Shown here: in pieces, positions 18,515 to 58,391 of the stretch | Numbering within the stretch: the stretch's first letter is position 1 | Layout: every line of letters begins with the position of its first letter | Origin: a virus | Reading direction: 5' to 3' (one strand) | Virus record (IMG/VR): IMGVR_UViG_3300025655_000017 | Length of the DNA stretch: 64,000 nucleotides | The notes under the pieces: generated by a model | Database searches by the model: none | Told to the model about the DNA's origin: nothing | What the model saw: only the letters and a program-made list of their open reading frames with translations | Position numbers and translations under genes: made by a program

Positions 18515-19463
18515 GAATACAAAAGCAAGAAGTGGCAATTTACTAGAAGCCATGATAAAGCTTACCAAAGAAAAGAAAGTTTTTAATTCATATTTCTCTA
18601 AAAAAATTGATGAGACGCAAATCTATGTCATAAAGGAGAAAGGTAATTATATCTTAGTAAAAGAGGCAAATAACCCAGTTGGTTATGAGCGATATAGCAA
18701 ACATAATTTCAAATCATTAAATGGCGCAATTAATAATATTAATCTTCTTATAACAGAAGCTGAAAAATATGTTATTAAAGAACCCATCCCAGCATCATCT
18801 GTTGATGATATGGGTGGAGCTGATGATTTTGATATGGACAGTGATAGTGAAGAAGTTTCACTAGATGACGATGAAATGTCAGCAGAAGAAGATCAAGGTG
18901 AAGCCATTGAAACAGATTTATCTGAATATCAAGAGCTGGCAGGAAAATTGGCTTATATCTTAAAAGATGAAGCTGATGAACTAGATGATTATGATGCTAC
19001 TGTAAAATATGTTTTTAATACTTTGTTAGCATCTTTAAAAATTGATACAGTTAGCCCTGAATTGTTAGATAGCATTAAAGAAAAGCTAACAAAAAATGAA
19101 GATACACCCGAAGAACCAACAGATGAAGTTGTAGAGCAGTATGTTCATGAAATGGCTAAGAAAAAAGGATATGTTGTTGAATCTGTATTTAAAGATAAAA
19201 CACTCTTAAAAGAATATGGAGAAGAGGATTCTCCTTGGGATGATTATTCTTTGACCGATAAGCAAGTACAATATGATAAAGATCAAACAGGTCTTCCTTA
19301 TTATATGAATAGTAAAGAAGATTTAGTAGATGATAGTCTTGATGACGACGACGACGACGATTTTGACGACGACGATAGTCATAATAAGGGCCATTGGTTT
19401 CACGGGTTTGACAATTATGCAGATTACGATGATTTATTAAGTGATAATTTTTTAAAAGTATAA
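18507..19463 (+). CDS. Acidic hypothetical protein (scaffold/core-like)
   Basis: D/E-rich low-complexity tracts and I/L-x-E sites; ATG at 18507 preferred. Confidence 0.65.
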   Translation: MDKNTKARSGNLLEAMIKLTKEKKVFNSYFSKKIDETQIYVIKEKGNYILVKEANNPVGYERYSKHNFKSLNGAINNINLLITEAEKYVIKEPIPASSVDDMGGADDFDMDSDSEEVSLDDDEMSAEEDQGEAIETDLSEYQELAGKLAYILKDEADELDDYDATVKYVFNTLLASLKIDTVSPELLDSIKEKLTKNEDTPEEPTDEVVEQYVHEMAKKKGYVVESVFKDKTLLKEYGEEDSPWDDYSLTDKQVQYDKDQTGLPYYMNSKEDLVDDSLDDDDDDDFDDDDSHNKGHWFHGFDNYADYDDLLSDNFLKV

Positions 19464-26270: not shown

Positions 26271-26636
26271 ATGCAAATTGACGTTAGTGATAGCACAGTT
26301 CATTTGGTAGAAACAATTTGTCCTAAGGGGACAAAAGACAAAGTATTATATACTGCGTTAAAAATGACTTGTTGGAATGAAAATGCTGAGGTAATTTTTG
26401 AAGCAGGAATAACATGTCATTAATGCAATTATATAAAACATGTTCAATGTTGTCATATTATTGATGTTTCTAAATTTTCAGATGAAACACCATTAAATAT
26501 AATTAATCACCCAGATAATTTATTATGGCTTTGCCCCAATCATCACTGGGAATTTGATAATGGCCTCCTTGATAGTTTATATGATTTAATAAAAGATCAT
26601 GAATTATTGAAGAAATACTTGCACATGATAAAATAA
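26271..26636 (+). pseudogene. HNH endonuclease with in-frame TAA
   Basis: TCH*CNY..CHII..NLLWLCPNHHWEFD; TAA at 26421-26423 falls inside a CxxC motif. Confidence 0.65.
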
Positions 26637-26700
26637 ATCTGTATATTTGCATAGTAATTAATAGAAAGAATATTTTTTTACTATTTATTTTAAGAAATAG

Positions 26701-26731
26701 TTGCATTATAAGAAAAAAGTTTTTATCTTTG
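26701..26731 (+). promoter_or_regulatory. Host-type promoter for tRNA array 1
   Basis: TTGCA..TATCTTTG; a second one ends at 26649. Confidence 0.75.
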
Positions 26732-26767
26732 CACTGTTGAAAGTCGAAAGACTATAAATTTTTAAAT

Positions 26768-26841
26768 CGGAGATTAGAGCAGTCTGGTAGCTTGCTTGGC
26801 TCATAACCAAGAGGTCATTGGTTCAAATCCCTATATGTGCA
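26768..26841 (+). tRNA. tRNA-Met(CAT), initiator-like, with a non-matching (chimeric) 3' end
   Basis: D arm and CTTGG-CTCATAA-CCAAG anticodon arm intact; after TTCAAAT the T and acceptor stems do not pair. Confidence 0.6.
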
Positions 26842-26878
26842 ACTACAAAAACTTTTTTAAAAACATAATTTAATAGAA

Positions 26879-26971
26879 ATGAATACAATGCTAAAAAATA
26901 CAAAGATTAATAATGCAGCGCAACCGCTTCATGGGGATCGTTGTATCTACGCACTAAAGGTTCATTTTTGA
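26879..26971 (+). CDS. Putative attenuator leader peptide 1 (MNTMLKNTKINNAAQPLHGDRCIYALKVHF)
   Basis: 30-codon ORF; its 3' end contains GCACTAAAGG, complementary to the downstream terminator arm. Confidence 0.75.
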   Translation: MNTMLKNTKINNAAQPLHGDRCIYALKVHF

Positions 26972-26991
26972 CAGAAAAAAAGTTTTACTTC

Positions 26992-27028
26992 AAAAAAACC
27001 CTTTAGTGCAAATTAAAGGGTTTTTTTT
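26992..27028 (+). terminator. Attenuator terminator upstream of tRNA array 1
   Basis: CCCTTTAGT-GCAA-ATTAAAGGG stem-loop followed by T8. Confidence 0.9.
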
Positions 27029-27128
27029 ATGTTCATTGACATAGTTGGATTATTTTAGAAAATATTAACTGAAAAAGGTAGTCAGTCCTTTGGAGTGCAA
27101 ACATTATTGCCACCAGTTGATACATAAA

Positions 27129-27204
27129 GGTCTATGGGGCTGCTTGGGTTGGCCGTCGGATTGTCTATCCGAATATCAGATGGGTTCAAATCCCATATAG
27201 ACTG
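27129..27204 (+). tRNA. tRNA-Asp(GTC)
   Basis: Cloverleaf; TCGGA-TTGTCTA-TCCGA. Confidence 0.88.
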
Positions 27205-27210
27205 CAACAT

Positions 27211-27290
27211 GCTCCTGTACGCAAAATAGGCAAAGCGGCCACACTTAGGATGTGGTGATTTATTTGTGGGTTCAAGTCCCACTGGGAGTA
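27211..27290 (+). tRNA. tRNA-Leu(TAG)
   Basis: Cloverleaf; CCACA-CTTAGGA-TGTGG. Confidence 0.9.
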
Positions 27291-27371
27291 CAATTTAATA
27301 AGTTTCAAGTAAAAGTGCTTACTTAAAGACAAATAGTGATTTGATCTTTTTAATGAAGATTATTAATATAT

Positions 27372-27445
27372 CTAGATGTAGCTTAAATGAATAAAGCACC
27401 ATGTTTGGGACATGGAAGATGTCAATTTGAGTTTGACCATCTGGA
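27372..27445 (+). tRNA. tRNA-Pro(TGG)
   Basis: Cloverleaf; CCATG-TTTGGGA-CATGG; atypical T loop. Confidence 0.85.
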
Positions 27446-27489
27446 CTTTTTTTGAAAAAGGAATCTCTAACGTATGTCGAAAGAGATAT

Positions 27490-27766
27490 AGGGCTGGCAG
27501 TTAGCCTATTGCAGTTTAAAAATAACTTTTATACGTTTTTTTAAACGCATAAAGAAATTAATATATAACTATTAATTTTCATACTGTTGGAAACCAATGA
27601 TTGCATATGAAAATGTAATCTTGTTTACTAAACACGTTTTTAGTGGTTGCACTGAACCCTTGATTTTTAGTAAAAAATCATAAACAGGCTACAAAGATCA
27701 GTTTATTAAAACTGTCAATAATAACGTTAGGTTAGCTGCCATTGATTAATTTCATAAAAAGCTCCA
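27490..27766 (+). ncRNA. Candidate multi-stem structured ncRNA inside the tRNA array (possibly a derived tmRNA)
   Basis: 27496-27508 pairs with 27728-27740 (13 bp including G-U); 27509-27519 pairs with 27706-27718; several internal hairpins. Confidence 0.55.
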
Positions 27767-27840
27767 CAGGAGTTAGCTCAGTTGGTTAGAGCGTCATCTT
27801 TACATGGTGAATGTCAATGGTTCGATCCCATTACTCTTGT
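27767..27840 (+). tRNA. tRNA-Val(TAC)
   Basis: Cloverleaf; TCATC-TTTACAT-GGTGA. Confidence 0.9.
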
Positions 27841-27852
27841 CATTTTAATTAT

Positions 27853-27928
27853 GGTCTATGGGGCTGCTGGATGTGGCCACTCCCTTGTCGCGGGAGAGAT
27901 CAGACGGGTTTGAATCCCGTATAGACCG
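27853..27928 (+). tRNA. tRNA-Asp(GTC), second copy
   Basis: Cloverleaf; CTCCC-TTGTCGC-GGGAG. Confidence 0.88.
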
Positions 27929-27942
27929 CTTTTATTATTTAT

Positions 27943-28015
27943 GGGGCATTGATGAAACTGGCTATCATATAACACCTGCAATGTTATTTTACGGGTTCAA
28001 ACCCCGTATGCTCCA
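27943..28015 (+). tRNA. tRNA-Ala(TGC)
   Basis: GGGGCAT/ATGCTCC acceptor with G3-U70; TAACA-CCTGCAA-TGTTA. Confidence 0.88.
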
Positions 28016-28070
28016 CCCAATTAATTGACTATCAGTGTTTTATGTTATGTCAGTTAATCTTTTACTTTAA

Positions 28071-28150
28071 TACTGAGATACCCCCCTTGACTGATATTCA
28101 AAATAAAGGTAATTGGGTGAAAATATGGATTCGACCCCCATTCTCAGTAC
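28071..28150 (+). pseudogene. Degenerate tRNA-like element
   Basis: TACTGAGA/TCTCAGTA acceptor-like stem and ATGG-ATTCGAC-CCCAT T-arm-like hairpin; no good D or anticodon arm. Confidence 0.45.
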
Positions 28151-28161
28151 TTTTTTTACTA

Positions 28162-28233
28162 GCAGGTGTGGTGTAATTGGTAACATACAATCCTTCCAAG
28201 ATTAAGTCGCAAGATCGTTCCTTGTCACCTGCT
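28162..28233 (+). tRNA. tRNA-Gly(TCC)
   Basis: GCAGGTG/CACCTGC acceptor, U73, loop CTTCCAA. Confidence 0.85.
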
Positions 28234-28246
28234 CTGATTTTTACAT

Positions 28247-28320
28247 GCTTCTATAGCTCAACTGGATAGAGCAATTCCCTACGAAGGAATAGGTTGTTAG
28301 TTCGACTCTAACTAGAAGTA
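28247..28320 (+). tRNA. tRNA-Arg(ACG)
   Basis: Cloverleaf; ATTCC-CTACGAA-GGAAT. Confidence 0.92.
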
Positions 28321-28331
28321 CAAATTTTTAA

Positions 28332-28403
28332 AGACCTATCGTATAATGGCTATTACCCCTGATTTTGAGTCAGGAAATTCCAGTTCAAATCTGGATAGGT
28401 TTA
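28332..28403 (+). tRNA. tRNA-Gln(TTG)
   Basis: Cloverleaf; CCTGA-TTTTGAG-TCAGG. Confidence 0.88.
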
Positions 28404-29599: not shown

Positions 29600-29723
29600 T
29601 CTCCGGTGGCTTAGTTGGTTAAAGCATCCCACTTTCCTGTCCATTTATTAAGACTAATCCGTTTTAGTTTTTTAAAGGCCAAGATTAATGGGAGGATCGT
29701 GGGTTCGAGTCCCACCCGGAGAA
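29600..29723 (+). tRNA. tRNA (probably Lys-TTT) with a 50-nt insertion in the anticodon loop
   Basis: Well-formed acceptor, D and T arms; TCCCA/TGGGA stem encloses 57 nt instead of 7. Confidence 0.75.
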
Positions 29724-30715: not shown

Positions 30716-30789
30716 ACCCCTATAACTCAGTTGGTTAGAGTATCGTACTTTTAATGCGAGAGTCCTTGGTTCGAGTCCAAGTAGGGGTA
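30716..30789 (+). tRNA. tRNA-Lys(TTT)
   Basis: Cloverleaf; TCGTA-CTTTTAA-TGCGA. Confidence 0.92.
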
Positions 30790-30803
30790 CAAATTTTATT
30801 AAA

Positions 30804-30893
30804 GGGGGTGTAGCTGATGTGGTTTTAGCGGGAGACTGTTAATCTCTGATTGAAAATATTGAAATAAAGTGGGTTCGAATCCTACCGCCCCCG
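30804..30893 (+). tRNA. tRNA-Asn(GTT) with enlarged variable region
   Basis: GGAGA-CTGTTAA-TCTCT, G73, 21-nt variable segment. Confidence 0.8.
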
Positions 30894-30904
30894 CTTTTAT
30901 TTAT

Positions 30905-30978
30905 TCTGAGGTGGCTGAATTGGTTAAGGCACGTTTCTTGTAAAAACGGTTTTGCAGGTTCGAATCCTGTCCTCAGAT
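30905..30978 (+). tRNA. tRNA-Thr(TGT)
   Basis: Cloverleaf; CGTTT-CTTGTAA-AAACG. Confidence 0.85.
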
Positions 30979-31050
30979 CATTTTTTCTAAAATAAACTTG
31001 CAATTGTCATTAATTAATCTTATCTTTACAAAAATTAAAACACAATAATT

Positions 31051-43278: not shown

Positions 43279-43473
43279 GGGTTATAGGGAAAAGAATTTT
43301 TATTACCAATCGGATTAATAAAGATAATGTGTCACATTTTAAAATGTGATAAATTATCTGAGCAAGAATTAACAGTTGTATTTGAGGAGTTAAAATATAA
43401 GTAAAAAATATTTTCTCAAATAGTTGCATGATATATTTTTATGCATTATCTTTGTAGCGTTAAATATATACAT

Positions 43474-43808: not shown

Positions 43809-43839
43809 TTGCAAATACAAATAAAAAGACATATATTTG
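43809..43839 (+). promoter_or_regulatory. Host-type promoter for tRNA array 2
   Basis: TTGCA..TATATTTG, followed by CTATTTATA at 43871. Confidence 0.75.
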
Positions 43840-43883
43840 TATTGTAAAACAAAAAAAGAATTTTTTTAAACTATTTATAGGAG

Positions 43884-43967
43884 ATGAAAAATGTAACTGT
43901 ATATTATTATAACTTTAGTTGGTGCTTTTTTTCGGAGGAATCTGAAAAGACACTAGGGGTTATGTAA
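43884..43967 (+). CDS. Putative attenuator leader peptide 2 (MKNVTVYYYNFSWCFFSEESEKTLGVM)
   Basis: 27-codon ORF; ACTAGGGG near its 3' end can pair with CTCCTAGT of the terminator. Confidence 0.75.
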   Translation: MKNVTVYYYNFSWCFFSEESEKTLGVM

Positions 43968-43992
43968 TATAATGTTACAAACAAAGATTTAT

Positions 43993-44037
43993 AAAAATCT
44001 CCTAGTTCAATGTTTTTGAGTTAGGAGATTTTTTTTT
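43993..44037 (+). terminator. Attenuator terminator upstream of tRNA array 2
   Basis: AATCTCCTAGTTCAA-TGTTT-TTGAGTTAGGAGATT stem with T9; tRNA-Glu starts at the next base. Confidence 0.9.
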
Positions 44038-44111
44038 GTTGCCGTGGACGAAGTGGTTAAGTCGTGATATTTTCAATATCAAGGTTACGGGTTCGAACCC
44101 CGTCGGCAATA
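44038..44111 (+). tRNA. tRNA-Glu(TTC)
   Basis: Cloverleaf; TGATA-TTTTCAA-TATCA. Confidence 0.85.
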
Positions 44112-56940: not shown

Positions 56941-58391
56941 AATATTTTGTTTCTTGCTCGTGTTACTGCAACATAGGCTGATTGTAATCTTTCTAATTGT
57001 GAAGTATGTTGGTTTTTCACACTGAAAATATCTTTAAACGATGGAAAAACTGTATCATACGACTTTCCCTGTGAAGTGTGTGATGTTCCACCATAAGTGT
57101 ATTGTATTTCACAAAAAAAATCTATTAATGCATTTTTAGCATCCCAAAATTTTTCATATGGTGATAATGCATGTAAAGAATCATGATCACTCAAATAATT
57201 TAAGATTTCTTTAAATCTTTTATTGTCCACAACAGATGTAGGAATAAAAGTTTTTTCGTTAATATCGTGACACCAATATTCTAGTTCTTCAACTTTTATT
57301 TTAGAAACATCAATATTTAAAGTTTCTGAATATAATAATCTCAAATTAGCTTTAGAATTATATTTTACTGCCATGTCTTGAAATTGCCAAACTCCTTTTA
57401 GATTGGTAATCCACACTATGGCAAATCTCATTTTACGTTTCCCTCTAATTTCTCCTAATTCACCATTATTTAATTTTAAAATATTATTTTCATAATAATT
57501 TGTTTTTGAAACAACAAAATCACCCGGCTCAAAATGAAAAGGTTGAGGATTTAGTTTTGATCTAATATACCGGCCAGCTTCTTTATAAGAGTACTGTGTA
57601 TAAGAAATAAACTTACAACCTAAAGGGTTTTTCTTAAATTCTTCAATCATTTCTTCAGCAAACTGATACTTATCATAAGTTATTCTTAAATGTTTTAATT
57701 TTTGGTTTTCGAGTTGTTTCCAGATTAAAGGATCAAATTCTTTTCCCTCCAAACCTTTGTAGATTTCAGTACGAAATAATTTACCAATCTCTGAAATTTC
57801 ACCACCATAGCGATAAGGATATAATAACTCAAATGTTTTCAATTTAAAAACAGGTGAAAACAATTCGCCGTTTTTCCGTTCGATGGGAGGTAATTGACAA
57901 ATATCTCCAACAAAAATTATAATAGAGTCTGCTCTTCTTATTTTTTCGATAATCATTAATTGTCGATGACTTACTTGTGAACATTCGTCAATGATAATAT
58001 ATTTAGCAAGTGCCAAGGGTGGCTTTACCAATGTTCTTTTACCCTTTTTACTATATGTATATTTAGGAACTGGAACAAAATCAGTAACTCCATCCTCATT
58101 TGTAACTGGTCTACATTGTAGTGCAGCAGCAATTGTTTCAGCAGAATATTCATATTTAAAATTACCTAAGAAATTCTTTGCTACCCCCAACGCTTCATGT
58201 GCTAATGCACACACCAATATTTTATCATCTGGCTTTGCGACAGACTCAACAATTTGTCCACATACATGAGATTTACCATGTCCAGCAGGGCCAATAATTA
58301 CAATATCTTCTCTTTCGCTGAGAATATATTGACAAGCTTCGCGTTTAACTGTTTGCTGATTTTCATGTGATTTTTTTTGTAAATCAGTCAT
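56925..58391 (-). CDS. Dda/RecD2-like SF1B helicase
   Basis: GPAGHGKS, IIDECSQ, VGDICQLPP, HTSQGKSY, YVAVTRAR. Confidence 0.92.
   Translation of the reverse strand: MTDLQKKSHENQQTVKREACQYILSEREDIVIIGPAGHGKSHVCGQIVESVAKPDDKILVCALAHEALGVAKNFLGNFKYEYSAETIAAALQCRPVTNEDGVTDFVPVPKYTYSKKGKRTLVKPPLALAKYIIIDECSQVSHRQLMIIEKIRRADSIIIFVGDICQLPPIERKNGELFSPVFKLKTFELLYPYRYGGEISEIGKLFRTEIYKGLEGKEFDPLIWKQLENQKLKHLRITYDKYQFAEEMIEEFKKNPLGCKFISYTQYSYKEAGRYIRSKLNPQPFHFEPGDFVVSKTNYYENNILKLNNGELGEIRGKRKMRFAIVWITNLKGVWQFQDMAVKYNSKANLRLLYSETLNIDVSKIKVEELEYWCHDINEKTFIPTSVVDNKRFKEILNYLSDHDSLHALSPYEKFWDAKNALIDFFCEIQYTYGGTSHTSQGKSYDTVFPSFKDIFSVKNQHTSQLERLQSAYVAVTRARNKILCLAE

Follow-up and report, generated by a model that had tools for sequence, protein, structure and literature searches.

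How phages regulate the tRNA genes that they carry is, to our knowledge, largely unknown, and phage arrays are usually regarded either as constitutive supplements to codon usage or as spares against the cleavage of host tRNAs. The locus described here raises the question of whether such an array can be gated by translation. Nine phage tRNA genes are preceded by a promoter, a 30-codon open reading frame (ORF) with a GC-rich codon block, and an intrinsic terminator whose 5' arm can be taken up by an alternative helix. The locus, hereafter locus 1, lies in a window of 64,000 nucleotides, bases 29786-93785 of the 132,834-bp IMG/VR record IMGVR_UViG_3300025655_000017 (CheckV completeness 42%). Positions given below are those of the window unless stated otherwise, and all features of locus 1 are on the plus strand.

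This uncultured giant phage encodes a T4-type major capsid protein (PF07068) with no close relative: the best match, located on a 2-kb contig, shares 55% identity, and matches in GenBank phages are below 40%. The window has a G+C content of 28%. The pattern TTG-N17-21-TAnnTTTG occurs 29 times in it, compared with about 10 times in shuffled sequences; the spacer is usually 20 nt long. Upstream of long ORFs, TATCTTTG shows a 7.8-fold enrichment. Sigma-A promoters of Bacteroidota consist of TTG, a spacer of 19-20 nt and TAnnTTTG, the consensus also having a G at -5, and members of this phylum use no Shine-Dalgarno sequences (PMC6847099). Over-representation of a promoter motif of this type means that the host is probably a member of Bacteroidota. 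A second over-represented motif, CTATTTAT(A), is enriched 13.7-fold in the 100 nt upstream of long ORFs and may be a phage-specific promoter; one copy is found at 26681-26688, just 5' of the host-type promoter of leader 1.

This host-type promoter (TTG, 20 nt, TATCTTTG) was recognized through the motif enrichment at 26701-26731 and predicts a transcription start at about 26736. Its -33 region is near-identical to that of the promoter found directly before a tRNA-Lys gene (43424-43454). The 5' leader of the predicted transcript contains a truncated tRNA-Met (CAU) at 26769-26838, delimited by Rfam, blastn and inspection of the stems by eye. Only its 5' three quarters are present: pairing is lost past the T loop and the 3' acceptor strand is absent. 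The Rfam tRNA match covers 26773-26836 with 35.5 bits and only model positions 6-65, and ARAGORN made no call for the remnant. When the locus was compared by blastn with phage sequences in GenBank, matches to phage tRNA-Met genes came from the tRNA-Met part only. We also considered a split tRNA-Met, whose missing 3' acceptor strand has a 6/7 match at 26945-26951, and rejected it, a match of this quality being expected by chance about once per 200 nt by our own estimate. Since the remnant sits between promoter and leader, the sequence suggests that the locus was rearranged at some time. Two further frames lie nearby. A 12-codon upstream ORF (26833-26871) stops 8 nt before the leader ATG. Further upstream, the frame of an HNH endonuclease (26271-26636) is broken by a single in-frame TAA at 26421-26423. 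Its first 50 codons are in frame with the HNH part at the C terminus, which has a CCH...NHH motif; it would be either a pseudogene or a candidate for read-through or recoding, and a search of the 132,834-bp record for a suppressor tRNA found none.

The leader ORF comprises 30 codons and a stop codon (26879-26971; ATG at 26879, TGA at 26969-26971). Its start codon lacks an A at -3, the base favoured at this position in this host type (PMC6847099). Codons 13-21 (26915-26941) encode AAQPLHGDR and were confirmed, at exactly the position given by the initial annotation, as a GC-rich block, with 63% G+C against 17-28% in the surroundings and 28% in the window. The block holds the rarest codons of the phage (GCG 1.9, CCG 1.2, CGT 4.6 and GGG 6.8 per 1000), a composition that fits a sensor and would equally fit non-coding sequence. 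The block further makes up the end of a hairpin (26898-26946; dG -14.1, z -2.8), and for this reason its composition could be structural: the hairpin may act as a pause or protector structure, or may itself be the real cause of the G+C richness.

Downstream from the ORF lies an intrinsic terminator (26992-27029). It has a 9-bp core stem (26999-27007 with 27012-27020), a 4-nt loop (27008-27011), a tract of eight T (27021-27028) and an A/U extension starting at 26992, with a dG of -16.9 kcal/mol and a z-score of -5.4. The 5' arm of the antiterminator (region 2) lies in leader codons 25-28 (26951-26960) and is the exact reverse complement of the 3' arm at 27000-27009. The 3' arm covers eight of the nine nucleotides of the 5' arm of the terminator and two nucleotides of its loop. 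Both the perfect 10-bp complementarity and its consequence had been claimed from the sequence and hold up: as the 10-bp helix consumes the 5' arm of the terminator, the two structures are mutually exclusive. The alternative hairpin (26949-27011) has a dG of -19.7 and a z-score of -5.7.

The strength of this pairing was compared with that at all hairpin-plus-T-run sites of the 132.8-kb record by evaluating, with RNAduplex, the 110 nt upstream of each site against the left arm and loop of the hairpin. Site 26992-27029 came first in this census, both among 22 sites under strict settings and among 35 under relaxed ones, with -16.7 against a median of -5.6. In the relaxed census, its pairing had a z-score of -4.7 and was reached by none of 100 shuffles. 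The ORF stop begins 9 nt past the 5' arm of the antiterminator. The stop of an ATG-initiated ORF of 20-60 codons is found within 3-15 nt downstream at only 3% of positions, in the genome or in random sequence of leader-like composition. No Rfam family matched 26846-27029 at E-values up to 1. A match to the DUF2693 RNA at 27031-27113 (E 0.23, 23 bits against a gathering score of 81) was dismissed. The T-box family (RF00230) was likewise not matched in 26846-27128 at E-values up to 1, and the antiterminator helix has no bulge.

The block ends about 10 nt before the antiterminator arm, a spacing that had been proposed to leave the arm free under a stalled ribosome. We assessed this by constrained partition-function folding of RNAs ending at 27020, corresponding to a polymerase at the T tract, with the ribosome footprint kept unpaired for each A-site codon. 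For RNA starting at 26740, the antiterminator helix had a probability of 0.56-0.96 when the A site was at codons 2-20. At codon 21 this probability was 0.59-0.95 if the footprint reached +10 or +12 on its 3' side, and from codon 22 to the stop it was about 0 in all four footprint variants. The switch between codons 20/21 and 22 places the boundary at the very end of the GC block, in agreement with the proposed spacing. Formation of the terminator depended on ribosome position, folding having switched in every footprint variant, so that the refuting case named in the initial annotation, a terminator that forms wherever the ribosome is, did not arise. The stall-competent window of the model, codons 2-21, is wider than the nine-codon block. 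Predictions for codons 16-18 and for the untranslated state varied with the assumed 5' end. When the RNA instead began at 26846, termination was predicted in the absence of translation (0.95). The antiterminator was then favoured by stalls at codons 2-15 and 19, and stalls at codons 16-18 and 20-21 gave a mixed outcome. With the long 5' end, the untranslated RNA is poised near 50:50.

The array itself (27129-28403) comprises nine genes identified by ARAGORN and Rfam, in the order Asp, Leu-UAG, Pro-UGG, Val-UAC, Asp, Ala-UGC, Gly-UCC, Arg-ACG and Gln-UUG. Both programs bear out the assertion that eight of the nine block codons are served by tRNAs of this array and that His alone is absent, as no tRNA-His was found. 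We defined the codon set as the 27 codons readable by the nine array tRNAs. Leader 1 is alone among 423 ATG-initiated ORFs of 22-38 codons in having at least eight of nine consecutive codons in this set. Windows reaching this value have a frequency of 5.8e-4 in long ORFs. All 27 array-readable codons begin with G or C, so that any GC-rich block scores well and the match is partly inflated. After shuffling of the 27-nt block, eight of nine was reached in 1.4% of cases, and the five other frames scored 5, 3, 5, 6 and 2. Taken over its whole length and against the adjacent array alone, the leader matches weakly (12/29, P 0.13). The N-terminal Asn, Thr and Lys codons had been noted to match distal tRNA genes for Lys, Asn and Thr, found by ARAGORN at 30716-30979. 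When these are counted, 17 of the 20 codons at positions 2-21 fall in the set (P 2.4e-3), which is unique among short ORFs. The His, Met, Ile and Cys codons of the leader have no intact phage tRNA.

Promoters were also looked for past the terminator. The spacer between the terminator and the first tRNA gene (27030-27128) contains no promoter recognizable in motif scans, and neither TAnnTTTG nor CTATTTAT motifs were found in 27029-28403, which covers both spacer and array. A single sigma-70-like site is present at 27036-27063. Such matches show no enrichment (20 against 24.4 in shuffled sequences), and promoters of this type are not used by hosts with TAnnTTTG promoters (PMC6847099). Transcription of the array from a promoter 3' of 27028, the alternative that the initial annotation had itself pointed out, thus gains no support from either over-represented motif. 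The census contains no strict plus-strand terminator between 27029 and 38579, and the distal Lys, Asn and Thr genes possibly belong to the same read-through unit; they may also be transcribed from 29211, where there is a weaker promoter-like -7 box.

Several other elements of the tRNA regions were recorded. Between tRNA-Pro and tRNA-Val, about 300 nt (27460-27766) contain neither ORF nor tRNA and have no Rfam match. Between tRNA-Ala and tRNA-Gly lies a tRNA-like element (28070-28152) whose acceptor-like stem has 8 bp and whose anticodon may be GAU (Ile), called by neither ARAGORN nor Rfam; leader 1 has two Ile codons. A tRNA with an insert of about 50 nt is found at 29600-29723, where the full Rfam tRNA model matches with 56.5 bits over 124 nt and ARAGORN made no call. 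Outside the window, a third tRNA cluster (record positions 119987-124126, minus strand) carries Gln-CUG, Arg-UCG, Arg-UCU and Asn genes and one tRNA with an odd anticodon loop. There, about 500 nt of RNA that is non-coding and seems to be structured separate a promoter (122148-122118) from tRNA-Asn, and a weak hairpin with a T-run in this stretch (about 122084-122056) has its own upstream competitor.

The same combination of elements recurs in the window in a sister cassette (43809-44037, plus strand). Its promoter (43809-43839) is followed by a 27-codon ORF (43884-43967), an arm (43952-43959) that pairs with the left arm of the terminator (43999-44006), and the terminator itself (43998-44037). 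The stop of this ORF (43965) begins 6 nt past the end of the arm (43959). This terminator is the only other one located before a tRNA array in the record, and it ranks second of 22 in the strict census and third of 35 in the relaxed one. The following tRNAs are Glu, Phe, Tyr-like and Ser, and no other ORF among 564 short ones has, as the sister leader does, a run of 15 codons of which at least 10 belong to the set of these tRNAs. Because tRNA-Glu begins at 44038, with no base between it and the T tract, a transcript from 43809-43839 can include the tRNAs only by reading through the hairpin. Constrained folding gave no equilibrium switch at the sister locus, the terminator being favoured whatever the ribosome position. 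An ATG-TAA start-stop was also seen in the sister leader (43891-43896), 7 nt after AGGAG.

We then searched IMG/VR with the unusual tRNA-Asp of the locus-1 array and obtained two contigs of other uncultured giant phages with the same design, whose leaders have no sequence similarity. The first, 3300045902_000666 (hereafter G001), is 101.7 kb long with 32% G+C and 40 tRNA hits. Its cassette lies on the minus strand (31024-30744) and consists of a promoter (TTG-N21-TACATTTG, 31024-30993), a 42-codon ORF (30933-30805), 1:2, 2:3 and 3:4 pairings, and a terminator (30774-30744) with tRNA genes directly after it. Region 1 (30870-30855) pairs with region 2 (30846-30831), which can alternatively pair with the left arm of the terminator. 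The array comprises Ala, Pro, Asp, Tyr, Ser, Gly and Met tRNAs. At leader positions 13-34, these carry 21 of 22 residues by amino acid and 20 of 22 by codon box, a match reached by none of 10,935 windows in the long ORFs of that record. Constrained folding of the G001 element gave a position-dependent switch. In the second contig, 3300036958_000207 (hereafter L010), the cassette (1946-2130) has a 42-codon ORF (1946-2074), a 9-bp arm (2059-2067) located 5 nt before the stop, a strong terminator (2097-2130; duplex -16.9) and an array of Phe, Tyr, Asp, Trp, Asn, Met, Lys, Ile and Val tRNAs. Here too, the terminator was favoured at every ribosome position in constrained folding, with no equilibrium switch. 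Since the terminator always wins at equilibrium at the sister locus and in L010, a kinetic argument is needed for these two.

When the four leaders were compared with the four arrays, each matched its own array best (4/4), and in three of the four loci the antiterminator arm lies within the last codons of the leader. The cassettes of G001 and L010 have in common with locus 1 the architecture, the type of promoter and a leader whose composition mirrors its array. Locus 1 differs in its codon block, which is the shortest of the four, in the tRNA-Met remnant that precedes its leader ORF, and in the 100 nt that separate its terminator from the first tRNA. Two homologues of the G001 leader were found in public assemblies, with 98% and 86% identity. 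In the DNA alignment, change is nearly absent from the promoter boxes, from the middle of the leader (about 90 nt, with regions 1 and 2) and from both stems of the terminator. Divergence with many indels is seen in the 5' UTR, between ORF and terminator, in the terminator loop and past the T tract. The single indel in the ORF is of 3 nt. In the diverged copy, two Ala codons are replaced, and the tRNA-Ala found at the head of the array in the other two copies is absent. This conservation is the pattern expected of a translated regulatory leader, and it concerns the sister element in G001, not locus 1.

For locus 1 itself, a search of IMG/VR with an exact 26-mer of the block gave no matches, and two metagenome pattern scans gave no matches and eight unrelated palindromes, respectively. 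The one peptide match found by phmmer among 1.8 billion representatives (E 5e-4) was rejected: the matching ORF is spurious, lying over a tandem repeat of 39-42 nt, and shows no similarity at the DNA level. The heads of the arrays in G004 (363 kb) and LR756511 carry no such cassette by the criteria used; a leader cassette before tRNA arrays is a non-universal design. Other unusual tRNAs and tRNA fragments were seen in these contigs. On the minus strand of G001, an unrelated giant phage, a tRNA with a CUA anticodon (amber suppressor type) lies beside tRNA-Cys (58020-58091) and another has an 8-nt anticodon loop (CCUA; 18692-18768); their sequences hint at stop-codon or quadruplet decoding. In L010, just past the terminator, a tRNA fragment (2157-2190) directly precedes tRNA-Phe; it covers the 5' half, from the acceptor through the D arm into the anticodon arm. 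Fragments of tRNAs thus adjoin cassettes in both this phage and that of locus 1.

We consider it probable, at roughly two chances in three, that locus 1 is a ribosome-mediated (leader-peptide) transcription attenuator gating the phage tRNA array. This reading is based on the sequence elements, their statistical oddity, the position-dependent switch in silico and the recurrence of the design. The interpretation of the initial annotation is supported, as everything that a leader-peptide attenuator predicts and that can be computed was found, namely the promoter, the ORF, the helix, the codons and the fold switch; from these we infer translation of the leader, its coupling to transcription and a response to tRNA supply. 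Host RNA polymerase would start at 26701-26731 and transcribe the tRNA-Met remnant and then the 30-codon leader. Under fluent translation, the ribosome would reach codons 22-30 or the stop and cover 26951-26960. With the arm covered, 26999-27007 would pair with 27012-27020, and transcription would end at the T tract before the tRNAs. A ribosome held up in codons 2-21, most likely at the rare codons starting with G or C that are read by the phage Ala, Gln, Pro, Leu, Gly, Asp and Arg tRNAs, would instead leave 26951-26960 free. The free arm would pair with 27000-27009 once these are made, no terminator would form, and polymerase would read through into the array, possibly as far as 30716-30979. 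The net effect would be a feedback in which a shortfall in the capacity to decode their codons turns the tRNA genes on and adequate capacity turns them off.

Other explanations were weighed against this reading. The locus could be a conditional terminator that works without translation, in which a trans-acting protein or RNA (for example a phage antiterminator, or a leader that binds tRNA) or the speed of polymerase sets the choice and the ORF is incidental. The alternative structures are the strongest single signal at the locus, the hairpin of the GC block could be a binding or pause site, and the untranslated RNA with the long 5' end is near 50:50, all of which such a switch would accommodate. 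It would leave unexplained why the ORF ends 9 nt past the arm (3% by chance, and seen at three loci), why the codon match is specific to one frame and four leaders are each specific to their own array, and why the indel in the G001 homologue is in frame; nor does any Rfam family, the T-box included, match 26846-27128 at E-values up to 1. We regard this explanation as improbable, and give about the same weight to another in which 26992-27029 is the ordinary terminator of a short unit transcribed from 26701, a decayed tRNA-Met gene, with the array on an unrecognized promoter past 27029 and the rest coincidence. The resemblance of the promoter to the tRNA-Lys promoter at 43424-43454 and the tRNA-Met remnant that follows it fit such a unit, as would the sigma-70-like site at 27036-27063, and phage-specific promoters could go unrecognized. 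However, sigma-70-like matches are not enriched and are of a type foreign to TAnnTTTG hosts. Coincidence would also have to produce three roughly independent oddities together (the helix, 0/100; the ORF end, 3%; the codon block, 0.2-1.4%), in a combination that recurs in other phages and at the sister locus, where there is no room for a promoter.

Small stable RNAs, whose role is unknown, are encoded among the tRNA genes of T4-like phages, and locus 1 could accordingly encode a stable small RNA or tRNA-derived remnant, or else a functional 30-residue peptide, unrelated to control of the array. Debris of tRNAs is common in the region (26769-26838, about 28070-28152), and the z-score of the leader hairpin (-2.8) would suit a structured RNA. 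Yet 26846-27029 gives no tRNA or other Rfam signal, the only protein-level match of the peptide is the spurious tandem-repeat ORF, and the overlap of terminator and antiterminator would have no explanation. A small RNA or peptide gene is the least probable of the explanations considered.

If an attenuator does stand before the array, the phage would gauge its decoding capacity codon by codon and adjust tRNA synthesis to it. Attenuation would thereby extend to genes whose products are the very molecules sensed, forming a direct feedback loop, as well as to viruses and to a host phylum in which it has hardly been studied. A broader and more speculative proposal, against which we would still place the odds, is that tRNA arrays in giant phages with Bacteroidota-like hosts are under homeostatic feedback from a sensor that gauges decoding speed at many codons and doubles as an alarm. 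Host and phage tRNAs together form the pool with which the leader is read, and this would make the switch an alarm. Arrays would then be turned on when host tRNAs are lost, as in host shut-off or through anticodon-nuclease defences, and each array would be scheduled on its own by a leader composed of the codons that it serves.

Full-text searches of the literature found no account of leader-peptide control of tRNA genes, and the known systems resemble locus 1 in part. T-box riboswitches also use a terminator/antiterminator switch to report on the state of a specific tRNA, but they bind uncharged tRNA through a specifier loop and a T-box bulge, without translation; locus 1 is not a T-box. In the pheST operon of Escherichia coli, leader-peptide attenuation controls a component of the translation apparatus, phenylalanyl-tRNA synthetase. 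Unlike at locus 1, a single amino acid is sensed, the controlled gene encodes a protein and the element belongs to the host. The multivalent attenuators of enterobacterial amino-acid operons such as ilvGMEDA and thr, and the trp, his, leu and pheA leaders, share with locus 1 the order of promoter, short leader ORF, terminator and regulated genes. They also share a cluster of regulatory codons, which in many cases, such as leu, are rare ones, and an antiterminator overlapping the 5' arm of the terminator. In these systems, a stalled ribosome leads to read-through, and both fluent translation and the lack of translation lead to termination. No sequence homology between locus 1 and these leaders is evident. 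Locus 1 departs from them in being borne by a phage, with a promoter of the Bacteroidota type and no Shine-Dalgarno sequence, and in the codons of its leader, which represent 7-10 amino acids once or twice each instead of runs of one to three. Its regulated genes encode tRNAs and not biosynthetic enzymes, and the most useful signal would therefore be the amount of decodable tRNA instead of amino-acid supply. The likeness of locus 1 to the enterobacterial leaders is thus one of architecture and logic.
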